Shown here: in pieces, positions 9,426-59,116 of the stretch
Numbering within the stretch: the first letter of the stretch is position 1
How the letters are laid out: each line of letters opens with the position of its first letter
From: Actinomycetota bacterium
GTDB lineage: Bacteria > Actinomycetota > Rubrobacteria > Rubrobacterales > Rubrobacteraceae
Assembly (NCBI GenBank): GCA_046732815.1
Contig: JBKPNW010000063.1
Location: 3,370 to 67,369 of the forward strand
DNA length: 64,000 nt
Reading direction: 5' to 3'
The notes under the pieces: generated by a model
What the model was told of the DNA's origin: nothing
The model's input: only the letters and a program-made list of their open reading frames with translations
Databases searched by the model: none
Program-made: the position numbers and the translations under genes

Positions 9426-10604
9426 CTAGTTCTGCAGGTTCTCGAAGATGCCCGCGGCGCCCATGCCGCCGCCGATGCACATGGTGACGAGGCCGTACTT
9501 CGAGCCGCGCCGCTTCATCTCGTGGATGAGCTGGATGGTGAGCTTGGTGCCGGTCGCGCCCATCGGGTGGCCGAGGGCGATGGCGCCGCCGTTGACATTG
9601 GTCTTCTCGAGGTCCATCCCTACCTCCCGGATCACGGCGAGCGCCTGGGCGGCGAAGGCCTCGTTGAACTCGATCAGGTCGATGTCGTCCATGGTAAGCC
9701 CGGTCTGATCCAACACTTTCGGGATCGCCACGGTCGGCCCTATTCCCATGACCTCGGGCCTGACGCCGCCCACAGCGAAACCGACAAATCGTACGAGCGG
9801 TGTGAGCCCACGTCTCTCAGCCTCCTCCCTGTCCATCACCACGACAGCGGCCGCACCGTCGCTCCTCTGCGAGGAGTTGCCCGCCGTAACAGTGCCATCC
9901 TGCTGAAAGGCGGGTTTCAAGTCGGCAAGTTTCTCCGCCGAAGTGTCGCGCGGTCCCTCGTCACGCCCGAAGCTCGTCTCCATGTGTTGTAGTTCGCCGC
10001 TCTCGTCGACCCAATCCAACTCGACGTTCAGGGACACGATCTCCTCGTCGAACACGCCACCTTCGACCGCTTTCCTTGCCAGGGTGTGGCTGCGGAGGGC
10101 GAACTCGTCCTGGTCTTCGCGGCTCACGTCGAACTCGCGGGCGACCTGCTCCGCGGTCAGGCCCATGCCCATGTAGGCCGCAGGGTTGATCTCCATGAGC
10201 CGCGGGTTGGGCGAAAAGTTAGGCATCTCGATGGTCGAAGACATGTGTTCGGTCCCCCCCGCCACGATGGTCTTGGCGTTGCCGACCATGATCCGCTCGG
10301 AGGCCATCGCGATGGTCTGGAGTCCCGAAGAGCAGAACCGGTTGACCGTCTGCGCCGGCACCGTATCGGGCATCCCGGCGAGCAAAGAGGACAGCCTGGC
10401 CACGTTGTACCCCTGCGTCCCTTCGGGCATCGCACACCCGAGGATAACGTCCTCCACATCTTCCCTCTCGAGCCCCTCCGCGCGCCCCACGGCCTCACCG
10501 ATAGCAGCGGCGGCCATGTCATCAGGGCGGCTCGCCCGCAACCTCCCCTTCGGCGCACGTCCCACCGCGGTCCGTGCCCCCGAAACGATTACAGCTTCGC
10601 GCAT
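9426..10604 (-). CDS. fadA: Acetyl-CoA C-acyltransferase (3-ketoacyl-CoA thiolase)
   Basis: [22 protein letters not shown] and CIGGGMG thiolase motifs. Confidence 0.95.
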
Positions 10605-10606
10605 TT

Positions 10607-10790
10607 TCGCTCCCTTCGGTCGCTCAGCATGTCAGCTAGTCAGCACGCTCAGGCTTCGCCTGCGTTTGTCAGCATTTCAGCTTTGTCGTGCGCTAGCCCT
10701 TGCTGACTGGCTGACAAGGCGGCAAAGCCGCCGTGCTGACAAGCGAAGCCCGTAGGGCTGAGCGTGCTGAAATGCTGAAGTGCTGACATG
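10607..10790. repeat. TCAGC/GCTGA-array element E6 filling the fadN-fadA gap
   Basis: 11-bp inverted repeat agcatgtcagc (10626-10636) / gctgacatgct (10782-10792), several hairpin modules. The 36-mer at 10735-10770 is identical to 15926-15961. Confidence 0.93.
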
Positions 10791-13163
10791 CTAATTCCTT
10801 CTCGGCTTTCCTGTTTTCAGTAGTGCTTCGATGCGTTCGTGGGTTTTCTCGTTTTTCAGGAGATCCAGGAATGACTTTTTCTCCAGTTTCAGGAGGTATT
10901 CTTCGGGGACCCATTGGGGGAGGGAGAGGTTGCCACCGGTGAGGATGTGGGCAACGTGGCCCGCGATGACGCCGTCGTAGTCACTCGCGTAGTGGCCCCA
11001 TTGCATGGTCTTTACGCCCATTTCGAGCGCGGCCCGGGCGGTTCGGCCCGAGGCGTAGACGTTGTTGCCGTGCTCGGGCGGGGTGTAGCCGTCGGACAGG
11101 TCCTGGACCTCGCGCTTGGCGGCGGAGATGAGGTGGTCCGCGTTCATTACTATGCGGTCGTCTGCGGTGAGGAATCCCATCTCTCTGGCTTCGAGGGCGC
11201 TGGTCGCCGTCTTGGCCAGGGCTATCTGCTCGAAGGCTTTCTGGAGGAAGGGCAGGGGTGGGGTGTTCGGGGCGGTGTGGAGCGGCGGGGAGACGAGGCG
11301 GCGGGCCATCTCTTTGGTGCCCCCACCGGCGGGGATCAGGCCTACCCCGACCTCGACGAGGCCCATATAGGTCTCGCCGGCGGCGACGATGCGGTCCGAG
11401 TGGAGGCAGACCTCGAGTCCCCCGCCGAGGGTCTGGCCGTGCGGGGCGGAGACGACGGGCTTGGGGGCGAACCGAAAGGCCATGAGCAGGTCCTGCAGGG
11501 CCTCAACGCTCTTTTCGATCCCTGCCAGGTCCCCGTTCTGGACGGCGTGGGCCATCTCGCCGAGGTTGGCGCCTACGGAGAAGTTGCGGCCCTCGTTGCC
11601 GATGACTAGCCCGATCACATCGTCGCGCTCCAGCGTCTCTAGCGCCCGGTAGCCCATCTCGACCGTTCCCGCCTCGATGGAGTTGCCCCTGGAGTGGAAT
11701 TCCAGGCACAGCACCCCGTCACCGAGGTCGAGCAGGCTCGCCGAGTCGTTGCTGGCGAGCTCCTGGCCCTGGTCCCGCAGACGGTCGAGGGAGACGTACA
11801 TCGGGTCCTCGCGAACGGGTTCGTACTCCTTGCTTACGGGGCTGAACTGGAGCTCGGTGCCGTTCTCGGTCTTGTAGAAGGCCTCGTTTCCGGCGTCGAG
11901 CATCTCTTTTACCCAGCCGCCGACCTCGATATCCATAGACTCCATGTTCTCGACCGTCTCGCGCACACCGAGCAGGTCCCAGGTTCTAAAGGGTCCGGTC
12001 TGGTAGGCGTATCCCCACTCCATCGCGTGGTCCACGTCCTCGAGGGTGTCGGAGATCTCGGGCACCCGTCGCGAGGCGTAAGCCAGGTACGGATACAGGG
12101 TGTCCCTGATGTAGCGGGCGTGTTTGTCCTCATCGGCTTTCTCTACCAGGAACTGCAGCCTTGCGGCGAGGTCTCCCTGTTGTTGTGCTTCTTTCGCTAC
12201 GGGGATCTCAGGGTTCTCGGCGGGGTGGTGTTCGAAGGTCTCGAGATCCAGGACATCGAAGACGGTCTTGCCATCGCGTCTGTCCCGCTTGTAGAAGCCG
12301 GCTCCGGCCTTGTTGCCGAGCAGGTCCTTCTCCTGCATCTCATGGAGCTTCTGTGGCGGCTCGAGCTCCTCGCGCGACTCGTCTTCGGGGACGGCCTCGT
12401 AGAGGTTCTCGGCCACGGCGATGGCTATGTCCAGCCCGACCTGGTCGTTGAGGCGGAAGGTCGCCGTCTTGGGGTGGCCGATAAGCGGTCCCGTTATGGC
12501 GTCGATCTCCTCGACGCCGTAGCCGTTCTCGAAGGCGTAGCGTGCGGATTGCATGCCGGTGAAGCTCCCGAGGCGGTTGCCGATGAAGTTCGGGGTGTCC
12601 TTGGCGATGACGCCGCCCTTGCCGAGCACGCGTTCTCCGAAGTTACGGATGGCTTCGACTATCTCGGGGTCCGTATCTTCCGTAGGTATGATCTCCATGA
12701 GCTTCAAGTAACGCGGCGGGTTGAAGAAGTGCGTGCCCACGAAACGCTTTTTGAACTCTGGGGACCTTCCCTCGGAGATGCTGTGCAGCGGGATGCCCGA
12801 GGTGTTGGTCGAGATGATGGCGCTCTCTTTCGCCGTATCTTCGACGCGTTGCATGAGCTCTCTTTTGGGTTCGAGCTTCTCGATTATGGCCTCGACGATC
12901 CAATCCGCCTCGCCGACGCGCCCGAAGTGCTCCTCGAAGTTGCCGACCCTGATCCTGTCGGCCACGGTCTCGCCCATCAGCGCGGCTGGCCTGGCGTTCT
13001 TCATCCTGTCGAAGCCGGCCTCCACTACGGCGTTCTTGTCGTCGTCATCCGAGGCTATGTCGAGCAGGTCCACCTCCAGGCCAGCGTTGGCGCAATGGGC
13101 GGCGATGGCGGCGCCCATCGTGCCCGCTCCCAGTACGGCCACCTTCCTGATCCCGTGCGACAT
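10791..13163 (-). CDS. fadN: 3-hydroxyacyl-CoA dehydrogenase / enoyl-CoA hydratase multifunctional enzyme (FadN type)
   Basis: GAGTMG Rossmann motif, STNTSGIP, HFFNPPRY; C-terminal crotonase domain; 790 aa. Confidence 0.9.
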   Translation of the reverse strand: MSHGIRKVAVLGAGTMGAAIAAHCANAGLEVDLLDIASDDDDKNAVVEAGFDRMKNARPAALMGETVADRIRVGNFEEHFGRVGEADWIVEAIIEKLEPKRELMQRVEDTAKESAIISTNTSGIPLHSISEGRSPEFKKRFVGTHFFNPPRYLKLMEIIPTEDTDPEIVEAIRNFGERVLGKGGVIAKDTPNFIGNRLGSFTGMQSARYAFENGYGVEEIDAITGPLIGHPKTATFRLNDQVGLDIAIAVAENLYEAVPEDESREELEPPQKLHEMQEKDLLGNKAGAGFYKRDRRDGKTVFDVLDLETFEHHPAENPEIPVAKEAQQQGDLAARLQFLVEKADEDKHARYIRDTLYPYLAYASRRVPEISDTLEDVDHAMEWGYAYQTGPFRTWDLLGVRETVENMESMDIEVGGWVKEMLDAGNEAFYKTENGTELQFSPVSKEYEPVREDPMYVSLDRLRDQGQELASNDSASLLDLGDGVLCLEFHSRGNSIEAGTVEMGYRALETLERDDVIGLVIGNEGRNFSVGANLGEMAHAVQNGDLAGIEKSVEALQDLLMAFRFAPKPVVSAPHGQTLGGGLEVCLHSDRIVAAGETYMGLVEVGVGLIPAGGGTKEMARRLVSPPLHTAPNTPPLPFLQKAFEQIALAKTATSALEAREMGFLTADDRIVMNADHLISAAKREVQDLSDGYTPPEHGNNVYASGRTARAALEMGVKTMQWGHYASDYDGVIAGHVAHILTGGNLSLPQWVPEEYLLKLEKKSFLDLLKNEKTHERIEALLKTGKPRRN

Positions 13164-13178
13164 GCAGGCCTCCCGATC

Positions 13179-13571
13179 CTATCCGTAGAGCTCTCTGTGC
13201 AAAGACTCGATAGCATCTCTTACCCGCAAGAGGTGGGCCTCGAATCTGCCCTTGATCTCGGCGTACTTCTCTTCCCCCCGCCCCGTTATCTTGTAGAAGC
13301 GCCGGCTCCTCGTATCAGGCCGCTCCCACTCCCCCTCCACATACCCCTTCTCCTCGAGCCGCCGCAAGAGCGGATATACCGTGTTCGGCGAGACGCTCAT
13401 CGTGCCGGCAGAGATCTCACGTATCCGCGCCATGATGCTGTTCCCGTAGGCAGGCTCCTCCCTCACGAGGTGCAAGATCAATAGCGGAAAAACATCCCGC
13501 GTCTTGACCTCGCTCAAGAAGACGTCCTTCGGCGTCGTCCTCTCCACCGAACTTCCCGTCGTTTTTCCCAT
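13179..13571 (-). CDS. PadR family transcriptional regulator
   Basis: YG..I...I.....G.....PNTVYPLLRRLEEKGY and RRFYKIT..GE winged-helix pattern. Confidence 0.9.
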   Translation of the reverse strand: MGKTTGSSVERTTPKDVFLSEVKTRDVFPLLILHLVREEPAYGNSIMARIREISAGTMSVSPNTVYPLLRRLEEKGYVEGEWERPDTRSRRFYKITGRGEEKYAEIKGRFEAHLLRVRDAIESLHRELYG

Positions 13572-13593
13572 CGCCCTCGCTCCCCTCGAAAAC

Positions 13594-13609
13594 TTGTCAA
13601 AATTGATAA
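13594..13609. promoter_or_regulatory. Candidate PadR operator in the divergent padR / acyl-CoA dehydrogenase promoter
   Basis: Imperfect palindrome ttgtcaa-aa-ttgataa in an AT-rich island. Confidence 0.4.
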
Positions 13610-13689
13610 TAACACGGATAATAAGTTTGCGTGGAGGTCCGGGTCCTTATAGAGTTGGGACGCGGAGAGTTCGAGCGAAGGAGGAGCTT

Positions 13690-14889
13690 ATGATCACCGA
13701 CGTCACCCGGTCGTTGGGGACCGACTATTATCTGCTCGACGAGCTATTCACGGAGGAGGAGCGGGAGATCCGGGACCGGGTCAGGGCTTTCGCCGACGCC
13801 GAGGTCATCCCGATAATCAACGATTACTGGGAGAAGGCGGAGTTTCCTTTCGAGCTCGTCCCCAAGGTCGCCGCCCTGAACATCGCGGGCGGCCCTATCG
13901 AGGAGTACGGGTGTCCTGGCATGAGTCAGGTCGCCGCGGGGCTGGTCGCCATAGAGATGGCCCGGGGAGACGGGAGCCTCAACACCTTCTTCGGGGTCCA
14001 TTCCGGGCTCGCGATGGGGACCGTGGCGATCTGCGGTTCCGAGGAGCAGAAGCGGCGGTGGCTCCCCGAGATGGCGCGGATGGAGAAAATCGGGGCCTGG
14101 GGTCTGACGGAGCCCGACCACGGTTCTGACTCCGTGATGCTGGAGAGCACGGCCCGACGCGACGGCGACGGTTGGGTCCTCAACGGTAAGAAGCGTTGGA
14201 TCGGCAACGCCACCTTCGCCGACCTCGTCATCATCTGGGCCCGCGACGTCGAAGACGGGCAGGTCAAAGCCTTCGTGCTCGAAAAAGACGAGAACGGCGA
14301 GCACCATCCCGGCTACTCCACACAGCTGATAAAGGGCAAGATGGGCAAACGCGCCGTCTGGCAGCCGGATATCTATCTAGAAGACGTCTACGTCCCCGAC
14401 GAGAATCGTCTCGAACGGGCCAACACCTTCAAGGACACCAACAAGGTCCTCACCGCCACCCGCAGCGGTGTCGCCTGGGAGGCCATAGGGCACGCCATAG
14501 CCGCCTATGAGGCCGCGCTGCAGTACGCCCAGGAGCGCGTACAGTTCGGCAAGCCCATAGCCTCCTTCCAGCTGATCCAGAACAAGCTCTCCGGCATGCT
14601 GGCGGAGATAACCAACATGCAGCTCATGTGCTACCGCCTCGCCCAGCTCCAGGAGCAGGGCAAGATGACAGGACCCATGGCCTCGTTGGCCAAGATGAAC
14701 AACGCCCGCAAAGCCAAACAAGTCTGCGCCGACGCGAGGGACATCATGGGCGGCAACGGCGTGCTCCTCGAATACCACGTAGCCAGGCACCTCTCTGACA
14801 TGGAGATCGTCTACACGTACGAGGGGACCGACACCATACAGTCGCTCATAGTGGGGCGTGACGTAACCGGCATTTCGGCCTTCGTATAG
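13690..14889 (+). CDS. Acyl-CoA dehydrogenase (glutaryl-CoA dehydrogenase-like)
   Basis: GAWGLTEPDHGSD, LNGKKRWIGN and YTYEGT motifs; RBS gaggag. Confidence 0.92.
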   Translation: MITDVTRSLGTDYYLLDELFTEEEREIRDRVRAFADAEVIPIINDYWEKAEFPFELVPKVAALNIAGGPIEEYGCPGMSQVAAGLVAIEMARGDGSLNTFFGVHSGLAMGTVAICGSEEQKRRWLPEMARMEKIGAWGLTEPDHGSDSVMLESTARRDGDGWVLNGKKRWIGNATFADLVIIWARDVEDGQVKAFVLEKDENGEHHPGYSTQLIKGKMGKRAVWQPDIYLEDVYVPDENRLERANTFKDTNKVLTATRSGVAWEAIGHAIAAYEAALQYAQERVQFGKPIASFQLIQNKLSGMLAEITNMQLMCYRLAQLQEQGKMTGPMASLAKMNNARKAKQVCADARDIMGGNGVLLEYHVARHLSDMEIVYTYEGTDTIQSLIVGRDVTGISAFV

Positions 14890-14892
14890 GGA

Positions 14893-15072
14893 AGCATGTC
14901 AGCACGCCGCTTCGCGGCTTGTCAGCACTTCAGCATGTCAGCTTGAGGCTTCCAAGGATGGCACGTCACCCCGACAAAGGACCTAGCGTAGCGAGGCAAG
15001 CCTTCGCGCGAATGCACGAGAGGCGCATCCGTACCAAGCCGACGCAGGCGGCGTGCTGAAGTGCTGAGCTGC
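14893..15072. repeat. TCAGC/GCTGA-array element E7 with long central spacer
   Basis: TCAGC arm 14893-14943, spacer homologous to that of E8, GCTGA arm ending at the DUF998 stop. Confidence 0.88.
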
Positions 15073-15714
15073 TCATCGCACGCGCGGGGCTGATGGGGTC
15101 CCGGCCTGGCTCCGCAGGTGGATCGCCATCACCTCTACCCACGCCAGCACGTTTGCGAGGAATAGGTAGAAACCCCACTGCCACGGCGAGGCGAGCAGGA
15201 GCACTACATACAGGATTGCGGTGAAAAGGGTGTACGGGGCGTAGCCACGCCACTGTGGGTCTAGCCTCAGCCGCCGCCACCAGAAGAAGAGCGAGAGCAG
15301 GAACGAGAGGACGAGGAGGACAAAGGCCAGGAAGTGGATCGCACCGTGCCAGGTCTGGAGGCCCTGCATGGGGTAGGGGTCGGTCTTGAAGGCCGCTAGT
15401 ATCAGGGCAACGCCGGAGACCACGAGGAGCGCGGGCCCGGCCCAAGAGAACCTTCCTCGAGACGCCACTCCGCGGTGGAGACCGAGCGCGAAGAAGATCA
15501 GGGTGAGGCCGAAGAAGGCGAAGTTCAACACCTGCAGCCAACCCAGAGGTCCGAGGGCCAGATCGCTCGGCCAAGGCACGTCGGAGGCCCCCAGAGGCTT
15601 CCATCCCAACCCGAGCATGAAGCCATACTGGGCGAAGGTCAAGACAACCACCCCAAGCGCGAACACGATCGGTCCTACCATACCGGCCAGAGCCGCGTTC
15701 CTGGACGACACCAT
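15073..15714 (-). CDS. DUF998 family membrane protein
   Basis: Six TM segments; S.L..GP.GWLQ..NF, F.TDP and HG..H patterns. Confidence 0.7.
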   Translation of the reverse strand: MVSSRNAALAGMVGPIVFALGVVVLTFAQYGFMLGLGWKPLGASDVPWPSDLALGPLGWLQVLNFAFFGLTLIFFALGLHRGVASRGRFSWAGPALLVVSGVALILAAFKTDPYPMQGLQTWHGAIHFLAFVLLVLSFLLSLFFWWRRLRLDPQWRGYAPYTLFTAILYVVLLLASPWQWGFYLFLANVLAWVEVMAIHLRSQAGTPSAPRVR

Positions 15715-15776
15715 CTCGTCTCCTATCCCTTTTCCCTACGGTCATAGTGCCACCAACCGAAAACCCGCGCATCTTT

Positions 15777-15994
15777 ACAGCACGCTTCGGGCCTTGCAGG
15801 CCCTCGCTTGTCAGCATGTCAGCTAGAGGCAGCCGAGGGCACGAGTTTCCCCGACAACCGATCGGGAATGGCGAGCGAATCCGTAAGGCGAATGCAAGGT
15901 CCGTCCATCCGTACTAAGCTGACTAGCTGACAAGCGAAGCCCGTAGGGCTGAGCGTGCTGACTTGCTGAAATGCCAAGCGACCGAAGGGAGCGA
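15777..15994. repeat. TCAGC/GCTGA-array element E8 with long central spacer and terminal RBS hairpin
   Basis: Same architecture as E7. Ends in agcgaccgaagggagcga (15977-15994), the exact reverse complement of 10607-10624. Confidence 0.9.
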
Positions 15995-15996
15995 CC

Positions 15997-17013
15997 TTGA
16001 AAGCGATTCGATTGCACGAACTCGAGGGGCCTGACGAGATCGTTTATGAGGACGTGCCTGAGCCGGAGCCGGGGCCGGGTGAGACCGTGGTGCGGCTGCG
16101 GGCGGCGGCGCTGAATCGACGGGATCTGTTCGCGACGCAGGGGCAGTATCCCGGTGTTACGCCGGATATTTTGCCGATGATTCCGGGCTCCGATGGGTCA
16201 GGGGAGGTCGTTGCGCGCGGAGAGGGTGCGGAGGGGCCTGATGAGGGGACCGAGGTCGTCATAGACCCGGCGCTGTACTGGGGGGATAACCCGCGGGTGC
16301 CCGGCAAGGAGTACCGGATCCTCGGTATTCCTGACGACGGCACCTTCGCCCAGTTCATCAAGGTGCCGGCGGATCATGTTTTCCCCAAGCCCTCGCATCT
16401 TTCACACGAGGAGGCCGCGGCGTTACCGCTTGCTGCCCTGACGGCCTATCGGGCGCTCGTGACGCGCGGCGGGGTCGCGGAGGGCGAGACCGTGCTCGTG
16501 CCCGGTGTTGGCGGCGGGGTGGCGACGTTTCTGGTCCAGATCGCCAGCGCTTTGGGCGCCCGCGTGTTCGTCACCTCGGGGAGCGACGAGAAGATCGAAG
16601 AGTCGAAAGAGTTCGGCGCGGAGGGGGGTGTCAACTACAACGCGGAGGATTGGAGCAAGGAGCTCAAGGGCATGTCGGGGGGTGTCGACCTCTCGACCGA
16701 CCACGTCGGTGGCGAGAACTTCAACGCCCTCGTCTCGCTCGCCAAACCTGGCGGCCGGATCGTCGTGATCGGCGCGACGGCCGGCCCGACGTCGAAGGCT
16801 ATGACGATCCGCATAGCGCTCAAGCAGCTCGACGTGCTGGGGACGGCGATGGGAACACCTGAAGAGTTCGGCGCGATGCTCGACCTCTACGCCGAGCACG
16901 GCCTGCGCCCCATGATAAACGAGACCTTCGCCCTCGAAGAGACATCCTCGGCCCTCCATCTTATGCAAGAAGGTAGCGGGATGGGCAAGATCGTCCTCGA
17001 TATACCCGCGTAG
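15997..17013 (+). CDS. MDR-family NADPH:quinone oxidoreductase / zinc-binding dehydrogenase-like protein
   Basis: AAALNRRD, PGSDGSGEV, GGGVATF and GKIVL; TTG start. Confidence 0.9.
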   Translation: MKAIRLHELEGPDEIVYEDVPEPEPGPGETVVRLRAAALNRRDLFATQGQYPGVTPDILPMIPGSDGSGEVVARGEGAEGPDEGTEVVIDPALYWGDNPRVPGKEYRILGIPDDGTFAQFIKVPADHVFPKPSHLSHEEAAALPLAALTAYRALVTRGGVAEGETVLVPGVGGGVATFLVQIASALGARVFVTSGSDEKIEESKEFGAEGGVNYNAEDWSKELKGMSGGVDLSTDHVGGENFNALVSLAKPGGRIVVIGATAGPTSKAMTIRIALKQLDVLGTAMGTPEEFGAMLDLYAEHGLRPMINETFALEETSSALHLMQEGSGMGKIVLDIPA

Positions 17014-17020
17014 TCAGATC

Positions 17021-17446
17021 ATGACAGAACCAAGGATCGTCTCGGAACCCAGGGGCGACGCGGAGGATGCCACTTTCGTGCGCGATAGCCTGTCACTCTT
17101 CAACGTAGCGGTTACAGGAGACTCCTACTACAGCCCGCTCGCCATCTACCTCAAGGACGAGCGGGGCGCGGTGCTCGGGGGAGTCCTCGGTCATGTCTGG
17201 GGAGGATGGCTCGACCTCAACGCGTTGTGGGTGGCGGAGCCGTTTCGCGGGCAGGGGTACGGAGCGAGGCTCCTCAGGGCCGCCGAAGACGAAGCCAGGA
17301 TGCAGGGATGCCACGGCGTCTTCCTGACTACCTTCAGCTTCCAGGCACCCGAGTTCTACGAAAAGTTCGACTACGAAATCATCGCGGATATACCGGATTA
17401 CCCGAAAGGCCACAGTTACCACGTCTTGAAGAAGACGCTGGGATAA
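17021..17446 (+). CDS. GNAT family N-acetyltransferase
   Basis: LWVAEPFRGQGYGARLL, TFSFQAPEFYEK. Confidence 0.9.
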   Translation: MTEPRIVSEPRGDAEDATFVRDSLSLFNVAVTGDSYYSPLAIYLKDERGAVLGGVLGHVWGGWLDLNALWVAEPFRGQGYGARLLRAAEDEARMQGCHGVFLTTFSFQAPEFYEKFDYEIIADIPDYPKGHSYHVLKKTLG

Positions 17447-17461
17447 GGTGGTTCGTGGTTT

Positions 17462-17485
17462 GGGCAGGTTTGAACGTGCCCCTAC
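17462..17485 (-). repeat. GTAG-type REP
   Basis: gggca-ggtttgaacg-tgccc-ctac. Confidence 0.7.
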
Positions 17486-17534
17486 AGGGTTTGGGGTAAT
17501 CGCGGCCACCGGGTGGTGGGGCCTGGCGTCGGTG

Positions 17535-33122: not shown

Positions 33123-33232
33123 GCTAGTCAGCGGGTCAGCACGGCGATTCGCGCCTTGTCAGCCGGTCAGCAAAAACAAAAAGCTGAAATGCTGAAGTGC
33201 TGAAGTGCTGACTAGCCGGCGACTGAAAGGAG
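33123..33232. repeat. TCAGC/GCTGA-array element E9 with terminal RBS hairpin
   Basis: Perfect 10-bp terminal inverted repeat gctagtcagc (33123) / gctgactagc (33207-33216), A-rich centre, then gcgactgaaaggag. Confidence 0.92.
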
Positions 33233-33237
33233 GCGGC

Positions 33238-34197
33238 GTGCTGTTCAGGCAGATCGAATGCTTTCTTGCGGTGGCGCGGCTGGGGAATTTGAGCCGGGCG
33301 GCGGAGGAGATGTATCTTACGCAGCCGACGTTGACGGCACGACTCAAGGCTCTCGAGGAGGAGCTAGGGGACTCGCTGTTTGTGAGGACGAGTCGTGGGA
33401 TGCGGCTCACGGAGGCTGGCAAGGAGTTCTTACCATATGCGGAGAGGATCGTCGGCGGTTTCGAGGAAGGAAAGCGCCGGTTGGAGGAGTTCCGTGGGGC
33501 TTCTGGGGGACGGCTCCAGATCGGGGCTTCGCCTGGAGTGGGGACTTACGCGTTGCCAGGATTATTGGAGAGGTTCGCGGCGGCGCATCCGAGGGTTTCG
33601 ATCTCCGTAAGGACGGGACATTCCGAGGCGATCCTGGAGATGACCCTCAACGAAGACGTACAGCTCGGTCTCACGCGGGCGATGCGCCACCCCGAGATCG
33701 AGAGCCTGCCACTCTATGAGGACGAGCTGGTTCTCGTCGTCGAGCCGGGACACAGGTTCACCAGGAGGGGGACGGCGGGACTGACCGAGATCGGTGAGGA
33801 GCAGCTCATCTTCTTCGACCACGATTCCAGTTACTTCGAGCAGACTCACGCCCTTTTCAGGAACGCGGGCATCGGGGAGCTAAGGACGATGGAGGTGGAC
33901 AACATCGAGGCCGCCAAGAGGATGGTCGAGCACAGGCTGGGGGTCGCGTTTCTGCCCCGGACGGCTGTGGTCCGTTCGGTCTCGGCCGGTAACCTCGTGC
34001 TCATTTCCGTAGAAGAGAACCCGGAGATGAGCCGCTCGATCGTGGCGCTCAAGCGGCGTGACGTCCCCGCGACGGGCCCCGTCGCCGCCTTCCTGGAAGT
34101 CGCCGACACGATGGGCGAAAAGCGGGACGGTGCCCAGCTCTCCCCCACCCTCGCGACCGAGTTCGAGAATTTGCAACTGATAGACTTGTTTACCTAG
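33238..34197 (+). CDS. LysR family transcriptional regulator, divergent from aceBA
   Basis: F.AVA..GNLSRAAEEMYLTQPTLT helix-turn-helix, LF.RTSRG..LTEAG. Confidence 0.95.
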   Translation: MLFRQIECFLAVARLGNLSRAAEEMYLTQPTLTARLKALEEELGDSLFVRTSRGMRLTEAGKEFLPYAERIVGGFEEGKRRLEEFRGASGGRLQIGASPGVGTYALPGLLERFAAAHPRVSISVRTGHSEAILEMTLNEDVQLGLTRAMRHPEIESLPLYEDELVLVVEPGHRFTRRGTAGLTEIGEEQLIFFDHDSSYFEQTHALFRNAGIGELRTMEVDNIEAAKRMVEHRLGVAFLPRTAVVRSVSAGNLVLISVEENPEMSRSIVALKRRDVPATGPVAAFLEVADTMGEKRDGAQLSPTLATEFENLQLIDLFT

Positions 34198-50719: not shown

Positions 50720-51957
50720 AAAGAGCACTCCGCACCGCCGTCGCAGCGCTGTTGTTCCTCGCCGCTTCGCTGGCGCTGGCCGTTTTCGCCGCATCGCTGT
50801 TCGGCGTGCCTTCGTCCGACCTTACGGCCGTGGCCGTGTTGCTCGGCGTGGCCGGTGGCGGCAGCGGGCTTGTGGCGCTGCTCCTGATCCGTCCGGCCGT
50901 GCTCGGACGCCTCGGCGGCGTGCGGGCGCAGCTCGTTGGCGCTGGTCTGATCGGGAGCCTCTTGCTCCTCGGCATGATGCTAGCGGGCGCGCGGGCCATG
51001 TTCATCTCGGGGCACGACCTTGCGCTGCTCTTGACGATGCTGACCTTCGCCGCGGCCCTCTCGGTCGGGTTTGGATTGCTCTACGCGATGCCGCTGTCGA
51101 GCCGCATCGGGCGCGTCAGGGCCGGTACGCAGCGGATCGCAGGTGGCCAACTCGGTTCCGAGATCAGGGTCGAGGGCCACGACGAGGTAGCCGGGCTGGC
51201 CGACGACTTCAACCGCATGGCGCGGGCCCTAGAGAGAGCGGCGGAGCGCGAGCGAGAGATGGAGCTGGCGCGGCGAGACCTCGTCGCCGCCGTCTCCCAC
51301 GATCTGCGGACGCCCCTCGCCTCGACGAGGGCCCTTATAGAAGCCCTCGCAGACGGCGTCGCCACCGACCCGCAGACCGAAAGACGCTATCTCTCCTCGG
51401 CCAGCCGTGAGCTGGAACATTTGAGCCGTCTGGTCGATGACCTCTTCGAGTTGGCCAGGATAGACGCGGGGCTCTTGCAGCTCACGCTGGAAGAAGCCTC
51501 GCTGCACGATCTGATCTCCGACACCATCTCGAGCTTCCAGCCGCAAGCCGAACGGAAGGGCGTGCGCCTCGCGGGCGAGATCTCGGACGATGTCGATCCC
51601 GTGCTCGCGAACCCACCCAGGCTTCAGCGCGTGCTCCACAACCTCGTCTCCAACGCCCTGCGCCACACTCCATCAGATGGCGCCGTAATCCTGCGCGCGA
51701 CACGCGAAGGGGAAGAGGCACGCGTCGAGGTCTCCGACACGGGCGAAGGCATAGCGCCCGACGAGCTGTCTCACGTCTTCGAACGCTCCTTCCGCGGCGA
51801 ACAGTCGCGGACCCGTCGCGAGAAGGAGGATGCGCCGAGCACTGGACTGGGGCTCGCGATCGCGCGCGGCCTCGTCGAAGCGCACGGCGGCACTATGGAC
51901 GTCGAGAGCGACCTCGGACGAGGCTCGCACTTCTATTTCACCCTAAAGCGCGCCTGA
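50716..51957 (+). CDS. HAMP-containing sensor histidine kinase
   Basis: SHDLRTPL H box, NLVSNA N box, DTGEGI and GLGL G boxes; ATGA overlap with the regulator. Confidence 0.95.
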   Translation: MKRALRTAVAALLFLAASLALAVFAASLFGVPSSDLTAVAVLLGVAGGGSGLVALLLIRPAVLGRLGGVRAQLVGAGLIGSLLLLGMMLAGARAMFISGHDLALLLTMLTFAAALSVGFGLLYAMPLSSRIGRVRAGTQRIAGGQLGSEIRVEGHDEVAGLADDFNRMARALERAAEREREMELARRDLVAAVSHDLRTPLASTRALIEALADGVATDPQTERRYLSSASRELEHLSRLVDDLFELARIDAGLLQLTLEEASLHDLISDTISSFQPQAERKGVRLAGEISDDVDPVLANPPRLQRVLHNLVSNALRHTPSDGAVILRATREGEEARVEVSDTGEGIAPDELSHVFERSFRGEQSRTRREKEDAPSTGLGLAIARGLVEAHGGTMDVESDLGRGSHFYFTLKRA

Positions 51958-51962
51958 TACCG

Positions 51963-51985
51963 GGACGGCTCACGAACCGTCCTAC
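51963..51985 (-). repeat. GTAG-type REP supplying the trpC stop codon
   Basis: ggacgg-ctcacgaa-ccgtcc-tac; the TAG of GTAG is the trpC stop (51982-51984). Confidence 0.7.
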
Positions 51986-52749
51986 GGCAGGGACGACAGG
52001 CGGGCGACGAGGCCGGGATCTCGCATCGCTGCTTCGCCTACGAGAACCGCGTCGGCGCCGGCGTTGCGCAGACGCCTTGCGTCTTCGGGGTTCTTGATGC
52101 CGCTCTCGGCGACGAGGGTGGCGCCGGCGAGTCTGGGGGCCAGGCGCTCGAAGGTGCCGAGGTCAACGGTGAAGTCCCTGAGGTCCCGATTGTTGACGCC
52201 GATGACGCGGGCGCCTGATTCGAGGGCCAGGTTCGCCTCTTCCTCGTCGTGGATCTCCACGAGCGGCGTCAGGCCGACTTCTACGGCCAGCGAGACGTAG
52301 CGGGCGAGCGAGGCCGCGTCGAAGAGCGCCGCTAAAAGCAACACGGCGTCGGCCCTGGTCCCGGTCTCGAGGATCTGGGCCTCGTCGACGGTGAAGTCTT
52401 TGCGCAGCACCGGCAGGATAGTTGTGTTCCGCGCGGCGTCGAGGTCTTCGAGGCTCCCCGCGAAGCGATCCGGCTCGGTGAGGACAGAGAGGCAACTCGC
52501 GCCTTCGACCTGGTATCGCTGGCCCCACTCGGCCGGATCTGCTTCGCGGATAAAGCCTGCCGAGGGTGAGGCTCGTTTTATCTCGGAGATCACGGAGAGC
52601 CCCGGTGCCGAGAGGGCGCCAGCGAAGTCCCTCTTCTCGTAGAGCAGCGCTTCCTGGTAGAGGTTGCCGAGGTCTGTGCTGGCACGCAGATCCCGTGCCC
52701 GCGCTATGGCCGCTGTGGCCAGCTCGTCGAGAACGGTGGCGCGCTTCAA
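51982..52749 (-). CDS. trpC: Indole-3-glycerol phosphate synthase
   Basis: ISEIKRASPS, LSVLTE, LRKDF, GVNNRDL, ESGI. Confidence 0.95.
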   Translation of the reverse strand: MKRATVLDELATAAIARARDLRASTDLGNLYQEALLYEKRDFAGALSAPGLSVISEIKRASPSAGFIREADPAEWGQRYQVEGASCLSVLTEPDRFAGSLEDLDAARNTTILPVLRKDFTVDEAQILETGTRADAVLLLAALFDAASLARYVSLAVEVGLTPLVEIHDEEEANLALESGARVIGVNNRDLRDFTVDLGTFERLAPRLAGATLVAESGIKNPEDARRLRNAGADAVLVGEAAMRDPGLVARLSSLP

Positions 52750-53783
52750 GCGGTCCCCGAGAGGCGGCGGGTGGTCTTTATGAAGTCTTCCAGGGCCCTG
52801 ACGGCGGCCCCTCCGTTTATGGAATCGTGTGCCAGACGGACGCCGTCTTCTACAGTCTTGGCTTTGCCCGAGACGTGTATCGCGGCGCCCGCGTTGAGGA
52901 GGACGATGTCGCGGGAGGCCCCTCTCTCTTCGCCGGTGAGGATGTCGCGGAGGATGCGGGCGTTGAGGTGCGCGTCGCCGCCGAGCAGGCCGTCGGGGGC
53001 GTGGAGGGGGAGGCCGAAGTCTTCCGGTGAGATCTCGTACTCCTCCAACTCTCCGTCGGAGACGTCCGCGACCAGGGTTTTATCGGTCACCGTGATCTCA
53101 TCCATCCCGTCGGTCCCGTGGACGACGAGCGCCTTCTCGGCCCCGAGGTCCCTTAGCGCCTCGGCGACGAGACGCACGTAGGCACGACCGAAGACCCCGA
53201 CGAGCTGACGTCTGGCCCCCGCGGGGTTGGTCAGCGGCCCGAGCAGGTTGAAGACGGTCCTGAAGGGTAGCTCCGCCCGCACGGGGGCCACGAACCGCAT
53301 CGCGGGGTGGTGCGTGCGGGCGAACATGAACCCGATGCCGGCCTCGGCGATGCAGCGGGAGACCTCTGCGGGGCCGAGATCTATCTCCGCTCCGAGCGCC
53401 TCGAGCACGTCGGCGCTGCCGGCCAGGCTCGTCGCCGCCCTGTTGCCATGTTTGGCGACCACGACGCCAGCCCCACGCGCCACAAACGCGGCCGCCGTCG
53501 AGACGTTGATGGTTCCCTTGGCGTCCCCGCCCGTGCCGCAGGTATCGACGACGCCCTCGGGGGCCTCGACCCTCGCGGCGAAGCGGCGCATCGCGCGGGC
53601 GAAGCCGACGATCTCGGGCACGGCCTCCCCCTTGACGCGCAGCGCGGTGAGGAGCGCGGCCACGGCCGCGGGGGGAGCATTGCCCTCCATGACGGTCTCG
53701 AGCGCCCGTTCCGCTTCGCCCTCGCTCAGGACCTCCCCATCGGCGGCCTTGCGGAGCGTCTCGCGCAACAAGAGTCTGCTCAG
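52746..53783 (-). CDS. trpD: Anthranilate phosphoribosyltransferase
   Basis: [34 protein letters not shown]. Start uncertain (CTG overlapping the trpG stop, or TTG at 53771). Confidence 0.95.
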
Positions 53784-54343
53784 AGCCCCAGGAAGTTCTT
53801 CAGGAGGTCGTGACCGCTGCGGGTCAGGATGCTCTCCGGATGGAACTGCACGCCCTCGACAGGGAACTCGCGGTGCCTGACGCCCATGATCGTACCGTCT
53901 TCGGTACGGCTGGTGACGACGAGGCATTCCGGCAGTGAATCGGGTTCGATCACGAGCGAGTGGTAGCGCGTCGCCTCGAAGCCCTGATCGAGGCCCCTGT
54001 AGACTCCCTTGCCGTCGTGGATTATCCTCGCCGTCTTGCCGTGGACGGGCTCGCCGCGCACGACTTCGGCGCCGAAGGCCTGGCCGATGGACTGATGGCC
54101 CAGGCAGACGCCTAAAGTAGGGATGCTCTCACCGACGCGCTCGATAAGCTCGACAGAGACCCCAGCCTCGTGCGGCGTGCAGGGACCGGGGGAGACTACT
54201 ATCCTATCCGGGTGGAGCGCGGAGACCTCCTCCGGCGTGATCTCGTCGTTACGCCGCACGAGGACCTCGGCCCCGAGCTCCCCGAGATACTGAACCAGGT
54301 TGTACGTAAAGGAGTCGTAGTTGTCTATGACGAGGACCCGCAT
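53780..54343 (-). CDS. trpG: Anthranilate/aminodeoxychorismate synthase glutamine amidotransferase component II
   Basis: [33 protein letters not shown]. Confidence 0.93.
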
Positions 54344-54394
54344 AAGTGGAGCGATTTTAGCGGATAAGCCGTCCATGAACAGGGAGGAGAAGCC

Positions 54395-55345
54395 TTGACT
54401 TTGCTCCTTACCGAGAACGAGGTCGAAGCCCTTCTCGACATGCCAGAGGCGTTGGATGCTGTCGAGTCGGTGTTGCGCCAGCATGCTGAAGGACGCGCCA
54501 CCAACCGCGCCAGACGCCGCGTGGCCCTCCCCACGGGCGGGCTCAACTACATGGCCGCGGGGGCCCCCGAGATCGGGGCCCTCGGTCTCAAGGCCTACAC
54601 CGTTGCGCGCACCGGCGCCCGCTTCTACACGATGCTCTTCGACCCCGAGGGTGGGGAGTTGCTCTCCATCATGCAGTCGGACAGGCTGGGACAGGTGCGC
54701 ACGGGCGCGGCGAGCGGGGTCGCGACCAAGCACCTCGCCCGTAAAGACGCGGACACCCTAGGAATCTACGGTGCCGGCTGGCAGGCAGAGAGCCAGCTCG
54801 AGGCCATAGCGGCCGTCAGGGACCTCGAGAGGGTCATCGTCTACAGCCGCAGCGAGGAGTCGCGCAAGGAGTTCGCGGAGAAGATGGGTGCCCGACTCGG
54901 GATGGAGATAGAGACCACCCACGCGGCGGAGGAGCCCGCGGCCCAAGATATCGTCGTTACTGTGACCTCATCGAGGGAACCCGTGCTCCTCGGGGAGTGG
55001 CTCAGGCCAGGGGCGCACGTCAACGCCGCCGGATCCAACTTCCTGTTCAAGAGCGAGATCGACCGCGAGGTCGTAAGGCGGGCCGGTTTCGTATGCGCCG
55101 ACTCGCGCGAGGAGCTCGGTCTCGAGGCGGGAGACCTGATGCAATCCCTCGAGACCGGCGCTATCCTCCCCGAGGCCGTCTACGAACTGGGCCAGGTCAT
55201 CGCGGGACAGGTGCCTGGCCGCAGCGGCCCCGAGGACATAACCCTCTTCGCGAGCCAGGGCCTCGCGCTAGAGGACATGGCCGCGGCCCGCGTCGTCTAC
55301 GACCGCGCAATAGAGCGCGACGTCGGCAGGGACATTGACCTGTAG
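54395..55345 (+). CDS. Ornithine cyclodeaminase / mu-crystallin family protein
   Basis: [38 protein letters not shown]. Confidence 0.9.
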
Positions 55346-55382
55346 AGAGAAGGTGCCCAAAAGGGCGGTTCGCAAACCAAAA

Positions 55383-55407
55383 GGGCGGATTTCAAAACCG
55401 CCCCTAC
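55383..55407 (-). repeat. GTAG-type REP (partial tandem copy at 55363-55378)
   Basis: gggcggatttcaaaaccgcccctac. Confidence 0.75.
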
Positions 55408-55420
55408 AGGGTCCGCGGCC

Positions 55421-56581
55421 GTGAGCGGTGTGCCTGCAGAAAACCGGTCGGCGCTGCGCGTGCCCAGGCTCGCGGTGCTCGGGGTGTTTTTCGCCAACGG
55501 GGTCGTGATCGGGACCTGGGTGGTGAGGATACCCGCCGTGCAAGGTCGGCTCGGCCTCAGCGAGGGCCTGCTCGGCGTCGCCCTGCTCGGGGCCGCGGTC
55601 GGGGCCCTGGCAGCCATGCCGCTGGTCGGGGCGCTGGTCTCGCGCTTGGGGAGCCGTCGCATCGTTGGTAGTACGGCGGCGCTGCTCGTGCTCGCGCTCG
55701 TCACGCCGGCGCTGGCGCCGAAGCTGCTCTTGCTCGTTCCCGCCCTCATGCTGCTCGGCGCGGCGAACGGCGGGCTCGACGTCGCGATGAACGCGCAAGC
55801 CGTCGAGGTCGAGCGAGGGTACGGGCGTCCGATCATGTCCTCCTTCCACGCGGCCTGGAGCTTCGGGGGCCTCGCCGGGGCCGCGCTCGGCGGGCTCCTG
55901 GCGTCCCGGGGAGTGGGGCCCCTGCCCCACTTCTCCGCTGTGGCCATCCTGGCCGCGATAGCCTTCGCCGTCGCCTACAAGGCACTCTTGCCCTCGGACG
56001 CCGACGCCTCCGAGGAAGGTGCTCCCGCGTTCGCCCGTCCGACCCGTGCCCTCCTGGGGCTCGGGGTCATCTCGTTCTGCGTTCTTCTCGGGGAGGGCGC
56101 GATGGGAGACTGGAGCGCCGTCTACCTGGAGAACACTTTGAGAACGGGCCCTGGCTTCGCGGCCGCGGGCTACGCGGCGTTCTCCGTCTCCATGGCCTTC
56201 GGACGCCTCTTCGGGGACTGGTTCATGGAGCGTCTTGGTCCTGCCACCCTCGTCCGCTCCTGCGGCGCCCTCGCCGCCACTGGACTGGGGATCGCCCTGG
56301 CCGTGGGACAGCCCTTCGTCGCGCTCCTCGGCTTCGCCTGCGCCGGCGCCGGCTTCTCCATAGTCTTCCCCGCGGCCCTCAGCGCCGCGGGACGCACCGA
56401 GGGCATCGCCACGGGACCGGCCCTCGCCGCCGTCTCCACCGCGGCGTACACGGGCTTCCTCGTCGGCCCGCCTTCCATAGGTTTCCTGGCTGAAGCGACG
56501 AACCTGGGCTACGCACTCTACCTGGTCGTAGCCCTCAGCATCGCCGTCGCCATCTTCGCCGGAGCCGTAAAGTCAAAGTAG
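55421..56581 (+). CDS. MFS transporter
   Basis: About 12 TM segments; W..RIP, DVAMN, IMSSFHA.WS.G, GR..GD patterns. Confidence 0.9.
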   Translation: MSGVPAENRSALRVPRLAVLGVFFANGVVIGTWVVRIPAVQGRLGLSEGLLGVALLGAAVGALAAMPLVGALVSRLGSRRIVGSTAALLVLALVTPALAPKLLLLVPALMLLGAANGGLDVAMNAQAVEVERGYGRPIMSSFHAAWSFGGLAGAALGGLLASRGVGPLPHFSAVAILAAIAFAVAYKALLPSDADASEEGAPAFARPTRALLGLGVISFCVLLGEGAMGDWSAVYLENTLRTGPGFAAAGYAAFSVSMAFGRLFGDWFMERLGPATLVRSCGALAATGLGIALAVGQPFVALLGFACAGAGFSIVFPAALSAAGRTEGIATGPALAAVSTAAYTGFLVGPPSIGFLAEATNLGYALYLVVALSIAVAIFAGAVKSK

Positions 56582-56608
56582 TCTAGAATGCCAACCTCAA
56601 CCAAGAAA

Positions 56609-56678
56609 GCTGAAATGCTGACAAGCGAGGGCCTGTAAGGCCCGCAGCGTGCTGAAATGCTATGACGACCGCAGGGAG
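56609..56678. repeat. GCTGA-array half element E11 with terminal RBS hairpin
   Basis: gctga units with the GGGCCT-GTA-AGGCCC module (near-identical to the reverse complement of 15777-15815), then cgaccgcagggag. Confidence 0.88.
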
Positions 56679-56683
56679 GAATA

Positions 56684-59116
56684 TTGTCCGAGACCTTCGA
56701 GAAGCAGCCCGAGACAGGGGGCCACTTCGAGCCACTCGGCCCCGCGGAGTTGCTCGACCATACGGACAACGGCTTGCGGGTGAGGGCCGGGGCCACGACC
56801 GTCGAGGTGGCAGCCCTGGCCCCCGACCTCTTCAGGGTCGGGATGTTCCCCGCCGGCGGCCCGCCGAGGTACGACTCTGAGGCTATAGCCAAAGAGGATT
56901 GGGAGCCTGTGGAGGTCTCCATGCAGGAGTCCGACGATGAGCTCACGCTCTCGACCACCGCGGCGACGGCGCGTGTCTCCTTGCATCCCCTGCGGATAGG
57001 GTTCGCCGACCTTTCCGGCAGGGAGTTCGCGGTCGACGACGAGGAGCTCGGGATGGGCGCCGTCGAGACGCCTGGCGCCGACGTCTTCTCCGAACCTTTG
57101 GGAAGCCCGGTTCGGCTCTACAAAAAGCGGGCTCCAGGAGAAAGGTACTTTGGGTGCGGCGAGCGGACGAGCGGGCTGGAGAAGACGGGTTCTCATCAGA
57201 TCTTCTACAACGTCGACCCGCCGCTCGGGCACACCGCCTCGTTCAATAACCTCTACAGTTCCATCCCTTTCACTTTCTCGATGACGAACGGTAAGGCCCA
57301 CGGGCTCTTCTTCGATAACACCCACAGGGTCGAGTTCGACCTCGCGCTGGAGGACGAGAACCGCGCGTACTACGGAGCCGAGGCCGGTAACATCGTGTAC
57401 TACGTCTTCTGTGGGCCGACCCCGAGGGAGGTAGTCGGCCGCTACACCGAGCTCACGGGCCGCACCCCCATGCCGCCGCTCTGGAGTCTGGGGAACCAGC
57501 AGTGCCGCTACTCCTACATGAACGAGGAGGAGGTAAGGGAGGTCGCGCGTGGTTTCAGGGAGCGGGACATCCCGTGCGATGTGATCTACCTCGACATCCA
57601 TTACATGGATGGCTACAGGGTCTTCACCTGGAACGAGGACCGCTTCCCCGACCCGCGGCGCTTGATCTCCGACCTCGGGGAGCAGGGCTTCCGCATCGTC
57701 ACCATCGTCGACCCTGGCGTGAAGGTGGACGAGAACTACCCCGTCTACACCGACGGACGAGAGAAGGACCTGTACTGCAAGACCAGGGATGGGGAAGAGT
57801 ACCAGAACGCCGTGTGGCCCGGCGTGTGCGCCTTCCCGGACTTCACCAACCCCGAGACGCGCCGGTGGTGGGGCGACAACCAGAAGGTCCTTACCGATGC
57901 CGGGGTGGCGGGGATCTGGTGCGACATGAACGAGCCGGCGCTCTTCATACCCGCCGGGGCAACGATGCCTGACGACGTGGTTCATCCCGGCGGAAAGTCC
58001 GGCGAGGCCAGGTGGCACGCCCAGATCCACAACACCTACGGCTCTTTGATGGCCCGCGCTGCCAGGGAGGGCCTTCTGGCTCTCAAGCCCGACGAGAGAC
58101 CGTTCGTGATCACGCGCGCCGGCTACGCCGGTTTGCAGCGCCACGCCATGCAGTGGACCGGAGACAACTCGAGCTGGTGGGAGCACCTGTGGATGAGCAT
58201 GCCCCAGCTCCAGAACCTCGCCCTCTCCGGCGTCGCCTGGGCCGGTGTCGACATCGGGGGGTTCGGGGGCGACACCAACGGGGAGCTCCTGGCCCGCTGG
58301 TACGAGTTCGGGATCTTCCAACCCTACTGCCGCAACCACACCACGATAGGGACCCGTCGCCAGGAGCCCTGGGCGTTCGGCGAGCCCTACGTGTCGGTGT
58401 GCCGCAAGATGGTCAAGCTCCGCCAGCGGCTCCTCCCCTACCTCTACGCGCTCTTCGAGGAGTGCCACCGGACGGGCGCGCCGATCCTGCGCCCCCTCCT
58501 GTTCGAGTACCCAGAAGACGAGATTACCTACACGGCCGACGACGAGTTCTTGCTCGGCGACGCCCTCCTCGTCGCCCCCACAACCCGCCCTGGCATCGAG
58601 CACCGCCACGTGTATCTGCCTGAGGGCACCTGGTTCCACTACTACGGCGGCGAACGCTTTCACGGGCCCACCCACATCCTTGCGCACGCCCCTTTGGGAG
58701 AGCCCGCCCTCTACGTCAAGGCGAACACCGCGATCCCAATGGGCCCGGACGCGTCCCACACCGGCGAGGGACCGACCGACCCGCTGACGCTGCTAATTTA
58801 CCCGGCCCAGGGCAAAGGAGAATCCACCCTCTACGAGGATGTGGGCAACGGCTTCGGCTATATGGAAGGGGAGTACGCCAGGCGCAGGGTCTCCTGCGAG
58901 TCATCGGACGACCGCATTACCGTCCGCATCGGTGAACGCGAGGGCTCGTTCGCCCCAGAGCGCGAGGAGGTTCGCCTGGAGTTGCGCGGCGTTGCGGCGG
59001 CGCAGAGCGTCCTCGTGGACGGCGAGGAGCGTGGGCCGGTACGTGAGGAGGACGGCGCGCTCACCGTCCCGCTCGGTGAGGAGGCCGGCTCGACGACGGT
59101 AGTGGTGACCCTCTAG
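56684..59116 (+). CDS. GH31 alpha-glucosidase
   Basis: PMPPLWSLG.QQCRYSY, LDIHYMDG, WCDMNEP nucleophile, WTGDN, D.GGF. Confidence 0.93.
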   Translation: MSETFEKQPETGGHFEPLGPAELLDHTDNGLRVRAGATTVEVAALAPDLFRVGMFPAGGPPRYDSEAIAKEDWEPVEVSMQESDDELTLSTTAATARVSLHPLRIGFADLSGREFAVDDEELGMGAVETPGADVFSEPLGSPVRLYKKRAPGERYFGCGERTSGLEKTGSHQIFYNVDPPLGHTASFNNLYSSIPFTFSMTNGKAHGLFFDNTHRVEFDLALEDENRAYYGAEAGNIVYYVFCGPTPREVVGRYTELTGRTPMPPLWSLGNQQCRYSYMNEEEVREVARGFRERDIPCDVIYLDIHYMDGYRVFTWNEDRFPDPRRLISDLGEQGFRIVTIVDPGVKVDENYPVYTDGREKDLYCKTRDGEEYQNAVWPGVCAFPDFTNPETRRWWGDNQKVLTDAGVAGIWCDMNEPALFIPAGATMPDDVVHPGGKSGEARWHAQIHNTYGSLMARAAREGLLALKPDERPFVITRAGYAGLQRHAMQWTGDNSSWWEHLWMSMPQLQNLALSGVAWAGVDIGGFGGDTNGELLARWYEFGIFQPYCRNHTTIGTRRQEPWAFGEPYVSVCRKMVKLRQRLLPYLYALFEECHRTGAPILRPLLFEYPEDEITYTADDEFLLGDALLVAPTTRPGIEHRHVYLPEGTWFHYYGGERFHGPTHILAHAPLGEPALYVKANTAIPMGPDASHTGEGPTDPLTLLIYPAQGKGESTLYEDVGNGFGYMEGEYARRRVSCESSDDRITVRIGEREGSFAPEREEVRLELRGVAAAQSVLVDGEERGPVREEDGALTVPLGEEAGSTTVVVTL

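Follow-up and report, generated by a model that had tools for sequence, protein, structure and literature searches.

A probable Shine-Dalgarno mini-hairpin at the gene-facing end of intergenic octamer arrays in Rubrobacteraceae

The closest precedents of the element described here are the REP2 (CREN) repeats of Neisseria and the IR repeats of Borrelia plasmids, multi-copy intergenic elements that lie upstream of unrelated genes, carry the ribosome-binding site (RBS) of these genes and contain internal stem-loops; they are single units of about 120–150 bp that also include a promoter and the ATG (PMC3184786). We analysed a stretch of 64,000 nucleotides (nt), referred to as the window, from a soil Rubrobacteraceae draft genome of 3.42 Mb and 63.8% G+C (assembly GCA_046732815.1, contig JBKPNW010000063.1, positions 3,370 to 67,369; the genome is called G000 below). 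Here a mini-hairpin of 16–19 bases, GCGACYGAARGGAGCGAC, which we call module M, stands at the gene-facing end of intergenic arrays of 8-nt repeats and precedes four unrelated genes. Like REP2 and IR, the arrays with M are multi-copy, lie immediately upstream of unrelated open reading frames and carry a putative RBS (28 genes in G000, 110 terminal copies in the genus). Unlike them, M is a mini-hairpin that ends arrays of variable 8-nt period units, leaves the start codon outside the repeat and is mostly intercistronic, and the likeness is one of description. We hold with moderate confidence that M is the module with which a superfamily of 8-nt-period intergenic arrays in this Rubrobacteraceae lineage ends on the side of the gene, that it is used as a Shine-Dalgarno (SD) sequence and that it has mostly been inherited vertically.

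Other repeat families resemble these arrays in part. As in repetitive extragenic palindromic (REP) sequences and bacterial interspersed mosaic elements, the repeats are GC-rich, palindromic, intergenic, inverted and enriched after gene 3′ ends and between cistrons, but the arms of the M arrays consist of tandem 8-nt units. REPs are not known to carry the RBS of the downstream gene. A REP model driven by a RAYT/IS200 enzyme was rejected, as the Y1 transposase (PF01797) is absent from G000 and from 28 of the 33 genomes of the genus, being present in the other 5, in a search in which control genomes gave matches. Miniature inverted-repeat transposable elements have terminal inverted repeats and target-site duplications. 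The arms of the M arrays are inverted but consist of a varying number of tandem units, and no duplication is seen at the stop-codon or M junctions, the transposase search having been limited to Y1. The TAACTGA/STRR heptamers of Beggiatoaceae and cyanobacteria are tandem direct repeats that face the start codons of unrelated genes and end a few nt upstream of them; their copy number varies between strains, they have little SD character, and the genes behind them mostly lack a canonical RBS (PMC4679880). The M arrays differ from these heptamers in having a dedicated end module with a strong SD, bipartite inverted arms and hairpins. No description of these arrays, of M or of relevant Rubrobacter repeats was found in the literature searched, and the combination of a dedicated SD mini-hairpin, 8-nt-period arrays with inverted arms, a mostly intercistronic position and no cognate transposase (Y1 searched) sets them apart from REP2, IR and the heptamers.

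Sequence, fold and placement of module M

M is laid out as GCGA-CY-GAA-RG-GAGCG, mostly followed by AC(C) and a start codon. Its minimum-free-energy structure as an RNA 16-mer, ((..((...))..)), is the fold that an initial annotation of the window had proposed from the letters alone: a GNA loop on a 2-bp stem, then tandem G.A pairs, then a C-G and a G-C pair. The predicted fold energy is -4.7 kcal/mol when the loop-closing pair is C-G, -3.0 kcal/mol when it is U-A and -2.3 kcal/mol with a C.A mismatch. Of the 33 genomes of the genus, 30 contain the strict 16-mer, GCGACNGAANGGAGCG, with 258 copies in total, whereas a reversed control gave 3, and copy numbers of M range from 0 to 35 per genome; GACYGNARGGAG is found 52 times in G000. 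The conserved block around M often reaches GCGACCGAAGGGAGCGAC(C) and the start codon, where similarity ends, and a 19-mer that includes the spacer, CGAC(C), is identical in front of unrelated genes. There is next to no chance that the four window sites are ordinary SDs that look alike by coincidence or convergence: GGAG-type SDs are the norm in G000 and their spacing peaks at 5–8 nt genome-wide, but the copy counts already refute this explanation, the spacer is identical at unrelated genes, and none of 150 other genomes of the phylum (ten of them from other genera of the family) has more than one copy of the M 15-mer.

Genes in G000 were called with a home-made codon-usage caller instead of a standard gene finder, so the counts that depend on them are approximate, and array-attached copies were collected with a slightly looser pattern than strict M. 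A genome-wide count before gene starts, which the initial annotation had suggested, gave a strong enrichment: 28 of 42 array-attached copies lie 3–9 nt upstream of a called start (10 lie inside arrays and 4 in neither position), compared with a baseline of 3.7% for any GGGAG (p = 3e-30) and with 9 of 44 copies that have no array, which are mostly loose matches (strict M in only 3 of the 9). M likewise makes up 2.4% of the internal hairpin modules of the arrays and about 28% of the gene-adjacent arm ends (roughly 100 arm ends at most 45 nt from a gene start in G000; p = 1e-14). Copies of the terminal type, in which GAGCGA is followed after 0–3 nt by a start codon that varies between ATG, GTG and TTG, number 110 across the genus.

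The genes behind M are unrelated to each other and include housekeeping functions, among them HPF, RNase J, enolase, PGK, seryl-tRNA synthetase (SerRS), MoaC, HypD and O-acetylhomoserine sulfhydrylase. Their called starts are supported by Pfam domains, which begin at residues 1–14 of the predicted proteins, and by orthologues, which keep the start at the same codon (ATG, TTG or GTG, with a few ATC or ATA). Among orthologues of the MDR oxidoreductase gene described below, three have ATC (L055, L058 and L073) and one has ATA (L062) at the conserved position, and these may be non-canonical starts. The 5′ region of the PGK gene, with its array and M, is found twice in identical form at contig ends of G000 (C222:275 and C47, minus strand, 12768), which is probably an assembly overlap and not a duplication. 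The 3′ end of the 16S rRNA, GGATCACCTCCTTTC, was located on contig C210, and the loop and 3′ strand of M, GAAGGGAG with C-G or GAAAGGAG with U-A, can form 8 pairs with it, one of them G.U in the C-G variant. From this placement and complementarity, we infer that M serves as the SD ribosome-binding site of about 28 unrelated genes in G000.

In the window, the four sequences that had been reported before fadA and the MDR, LysR and GH31 genes are all present (Table 1). The distance from the end of GGAG to the start codon is 5 nt at each of them, and no other SD-like sequence lies between array and start at any of the four, a point previously made for fadA and the MDR gene. At LysR, the spacer and start (window 33233–33243, GGCGGC GTG CTG) have exactly the sequence that usually flanks internal array modules on the 3′ side, ggcggcGTGCTGA. 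A GTGCTGA unit of the array coincides there with the start codon; array-less orthologues nevertheless begin GTGCTC.

Table 1. Copies of module M and associated arrays in the window
Feature	Position	Strand	Description
M before fadA (thiolase)	10607..10624	-	agcgaccgaagggagcga, then aa; GGGAG 10614-10610; ATG 10604-10602; kept in 15/19 fadA orthologues of the genus
Bipartite array across the whole fadB-fadA spacer	10625..10790	-	TCAGC arm from the fadB stop TAG, centre, GCTGA arm with GNA-loop hairpins
Array upstream of the MDR gene	15790..15976	+	Short TCAGC arm, ~94-nt centre, GCTGA arm with one GTA-loop hairpin
M before MDR (zinc-type) oxidoreductase	15977..15994	+	18-mer identical to that of fadA, then cc; TTG 15997; M in 36/51 orthologues
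Bipartite array upstream of LysR	33123..33215	+	Centre AAAAACAAAAA
M before LysR, U-A variant	33216..33237	+	Core 33219-33232 gcgacTgaaAggag, then gcggc; longer outer stem (ccggc...gcggc); GTG 33238
Single-arm GCTGA array upstream of GH31	56605..56665	+	One GTA-loop hairpin
M before GH31 (GCA loop)	56666..56678	+	cgaccGCAgggag, then gaata; TTG 56684

M within the arrays

The arrays are built of an 8-nt unit, GCTGANNN. G000 contains 386 of them, all of the GCTGA type and with no other unit type in the genome, and 218 are bipartite, always with a TCAGC arm followed by a GCTGA arm, both ends reading GCTGA outwards. Bipartite arrays lie in 109 tandem, 70 convergent and 27 divergent spacers, compared with 1086, 312 and 432 among all spacers (chi-square p = 4e-9), so that convergent and tandem spacers are over-represented among them and divergent spacers under-represented. 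The M loci are tandem, that is, intercistronic, in 22 of 27 cases, with the left arm starting 0–10 nt past the upstream stop codon. That stop is often TAG and can be read as part of a unit, TAG-C... with GCTGA-type and TAG-G... with CCTGA- or CCTCA-type arrays (window 10788–10791; the 22 tandem loci; L001–L019). In the predicted RNA fold of the fadB-fadA spacer (-95.9 kcal/mol, z -4.6), the two arms pair with each other, and M stands apart from them as a mini-hairpin at the 3′ foot, directly before AAA-AUG; the fold predicted for the LysR leader is similar.

Between the units, G000 has 456 internal hairpin modules, 231 of them with GNA triloops, and most are flanked by CAAGCGA...GAGCGT. M corresponds to the commonest of these modules, GCGA-stem-GNA-stem-GAGCG, with the stem reduced to 2 bp (GCGA-CC-GAA-GG-GAGCG). 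Copies of M also occur inside arrays, where they continue as ...GAGCGTGCTGA and are enclosed by units. G000 has 10 such copies and the genus 81, and in G047, a close relative, they account for 12 of 21. Such SD-like copies away from gene starts recall STAB-SD stabilisers. Given that the generic 3′ flank of every such module, (G)GAGCG, is already SD-like, M may have arisen within the array grammar, or else have been absorbed into it.

Several further features of the arrays were recorded. Array centres of about 90–96 nt share blocks (...GGCGAACGATYCG...CGGCGA...AAAAA) at window 15827–15917, at C35:6696–6791 and C146:2596–2691 of G000 and on C64; these conserved centres may represent a structured RNA or a site for a protein, and an Rfam 15 search gave no family at the gathering threshold anywhere in the window. 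A fixed polarity of the element set by its centre was considered and rejected, the orientation of A-rich and T-rich centres not being tied to gene direction and the M-bearing arms showing only a weak bias of about 10 to 4. GCTGA and CCTGA units may mix in one arm, and several unit types may occur in one genome (MDR orthologues L045, L047 and L082; genome G008). The unit type at one locus also differs between close species, the arms staying complementary.

Orthologues, turnover and distribution

The four window loci were compared with their orthologues. An intercistronic array precedes fadA in all 19 orthologues, with units of the GCTGA, CCTGA, CCTCA and other types; the SD GAARGGAG is always kept, and the 5′ half of the hairpin, GCGACC, accompanies the GCTGA and CCTGA types and is absent in four more distant orthologues. 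The array-less MDR orthologues stand either directly behind another gene (L053 and L064) or behind an operator-like palindrome (L062, L066 and L068), and all of them have plain SDs without the 5′ half. In the MDR protein tree, array and M are found on the deepest branches with the array-less states nested within, which argues that M is old and vertically inherited at this locus. At LysR, the array-less L128 and L130 read ...tatatcGGGAGGcactgGTG and the array-bearing orthologues ...GCGACYGAARGGAGGcngcGTG, the boundary of the array-linked part falling inside M, between loop and SD. At GH31, a basal array-less clade relies on a different SD and starts three codons later, an array-less sister (L109) already has the longer N-terminus together with an M-like GACCGGGGGGAAG, and a clade of 20 has array and M. 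Across these comparisons, the 5′ half of the hairpin travels with the arrays, an SD being present either way, and the order of arrival differs between loci.

Further evidence of turnover comes from G047, eight of whose M junctions have orthologues in G000 at 77–93% protein identity. M is shared at four of these junctions. In the other four G000 counterparts, a plain SD follows an array at two genes and a mere remnant of an array at one, and the last gene has no array and differs in synteny and in its N-terminus. Junctions thus differ between close species, which means that M moves or gets swapped over time. In the case of a thiolase paralogue, G047 has a CCTGA-type array with M (L154), and the corresponding G000 gene, on C305, has no array, another upstream gene and an N-terminus five residues longer, so that the array junction coincides with a synteny break.

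These results bear on two proposals of the initial annotation. Its view that the hairpin is borne by the element agrees with the flanks common to the internal module, with the internal copies and with the loss of the 5′ half where the array is missing, but M did not arrive in the same order at every locus. In the alignments that it had called for, only the 5′ half disappears with the array; an SD is still present, and L109 has an M-like RBS and no array. Of the portable, re-wiring module that it had envisaged, portability is supported by the differing junctions and re-wiring is not supported, since the array-less orthologues have ordinary SDs of their own (at LysR with the same spacing) and the array-less states of the MDR gene are derived.

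Of 17 genera sampled in the family, 11 have octamer arrays. Strong enrichment of the M core was seen in a second genus, g124 (80 matches against 5 for the control in G190, and 71 against 4 in G209), and no enrichment in g120, g121 and g22, which have arrays too. In G190, GAGCGACCGAAGGGAGCGAC ends arrays of unlike 8-nt units, namely CCAATAAC, CCCCACTC, the GCTGA unit GCTGANNN and the GCTAA unit GCTAANNN, and 13 of 20 sampled M copies are followed by a start codon and an open frame. In this system, the units thus diverge freely and M is what remains constant. The G190 arrays at L169, L171, L175, L180 and L184–L186 show the same bipartite 8-nt architecture, with units CCAATAAC/GGTTATTG and CCCCACTC and the same RBS module at the end.

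Alternatively, M could be an ancestral host RBS hairpin next to which arrays arise, with M as their target, anchor or boundary and with the internal copies duplicated into growing arrays, a possibility already raised in the initial annotation. It holds locally at GH31, where L109 combines the M-like RBS and the longer N-terminus with the absence of an array, and it would fit LysR, where array-less orthologues share GGGAGGCA and the start with array-bearing ones and the boundary lies inside M. The constancy of M while the unit type changes, both at one locus and across the unrelated units of G190, agrees with it as well, as does M with no or a minimal array in L086, L119 and L120. However, M has the exact GCGA...GAGCG flanks of the commonest internal module as well as the 81 internal copies with units on both sides. 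In addition, few starts in G000 are preceded by a strict M that lacks an array, the arrays of g120, g121 and g22 do not need M, and the identical 19-mer with its spacer at unrelated genes requires copying, not independent descent. Overall, we regard the ancestral hairpin as an unlikely explanation.

Role of the hairpin and significance

If M is an end module of the arrays, the usual order along the transcript would be upstream stop codon, TCAGC-type arm, centre, GCTGA-type arm, M and start codon. In the mRNA, the two arms would pair into one long hairpin and M would fold alone, as a weak mini-hairpin at its 3′ foot; the loop and 3′ strand (GAAGGGAG, or GAAAGGAG in the U-A variant) would pair with the 3′ end of 16S rRNA, CCUCCUUUC, as an SD at a spacing of about 5 nt. 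M would then be the RBS of the downstream cistron, placed just outside a large REP-like hairpin. Selection would keep M where an array abuts a gene start, with inheritance mostly vertical, array interiors turning over fast and junction modules being swapped from time to time.

The loop-closing pair of M covaries. In the 110 terminal copies of the genus it is C-G in 86, U-A in 20, U.G in 3 and C.A in 1, and in the 81 internal copies C-G in 79, U-A in 1 and C.A in 1, so that U-A is nearly confined to RBS-serving copies (Fisher p = 1e-4). The change from G to A perfects the match of the SD and is almost always paired with a change from C to U, which is not predicted by a model of selection on the SD only. 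On the fadA gene tree, the pair switched between C-G and U-A at least three times. The compensatory change from C-G to T-A that had been noticed at LysR is therefore a recurrent paired change, real at the level of sequence statistics, and we favour selection on both the SD and the stem as its cause. We also infer that the hairpin itself matters in RNA. RNA thermometers such as ROSE and fourU have their SD in the 3′ strand of a hairpin that is weak and includes non-canonical pairs. M resembles them in this arrangement, but its predicted accessibility is that of ordinary genes.

Several observations weigh against M as an SD module selected at array ends. In a few orthologues (L086, L109, L119 and L120), M stands beside a minimal array or none at all, and the genera g120, g121 and g22 show that arrays and M are separable. 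The copies are related by descent and perhaps also through gene conversion, and the covariation counts are not independent events; many copies are orthologous, and copying between two module subtypes would yield the same pattern. Array-less orthologues have ordinary SDs, so M offers the genes nothing beyond what they can have without it. Finally, the predicted probability that the SD is unpaired in its context is 0.37 at M loci, compared with 0.43 at ordinary SD genes and 0.42 in an in-silico mutant of the 5′ half, and neither difference is significant. The suggestion of the initial annotation that the element tunes downstream genes is not supported by this comparison. Occlusion or insulation of the SD by the hairpin likewise finds no support in it. 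M replaces ordinary sites and adds no new function.

The absence of a predicted effect on RNA accessibility would also suit a role of the mini-hairpin as DNA. C-GNA-G triloops are unusually stable, and M might take part in array dynamics (slippage, template switching or recombination) as a boundary or as a structural element, its SD being incidental and merely exploited. GNA triloops in 231 of the 456 internal hairpins, a motif known from d(GCGAAGC) DNA mini-hairpins, agree with this, and unit number and type change between close species around an M that stays, as a boundary would. Against it stand the strong placement of M 5 nt before starts, the enrichment of the SD-perfecting U-A pair in RBS-serving copies (20 of 110 versus 1 of 81) and a nearest-neighbour DNA energy of only -1.5 kcal/mol, from a model that does not capture GNA stability. 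Such a role as DNA seems quite improbable to us.

More speculatively, and with considerable doubt on our part, M might be the unchanging functional end of hypervariable 8-nt-period arrays that make up one system throughout the family, and array and M together might form a natural standard gene junction, in which a long hairpin runs from the upstream stop codon to an SD mini-hairpin that is insulated and lies 5 nt ahead of the following start. Such a junction might bring stop and start together, might couple, uncouple or temperature-gate translation of the downstream gene, and might be copied between genes by exchange of array modules.

Should ribosomes indeed use M, about 1% of the genes of these bacteria, some of them essential, would owe their translation start signal to a repeat module and not to locus-specific sequence. 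The units have diverged beyond recognition (GCTGA, CCTGA, CCTCA, CCAATAAC and CCCCACTC) around a constant RBS hairpin, a natural experiment on the co-evolution of repeats and expression signals, and the paired C-G/U-A change, enriched in RBS-serving copies, makes the role of the hairpin directly testable.

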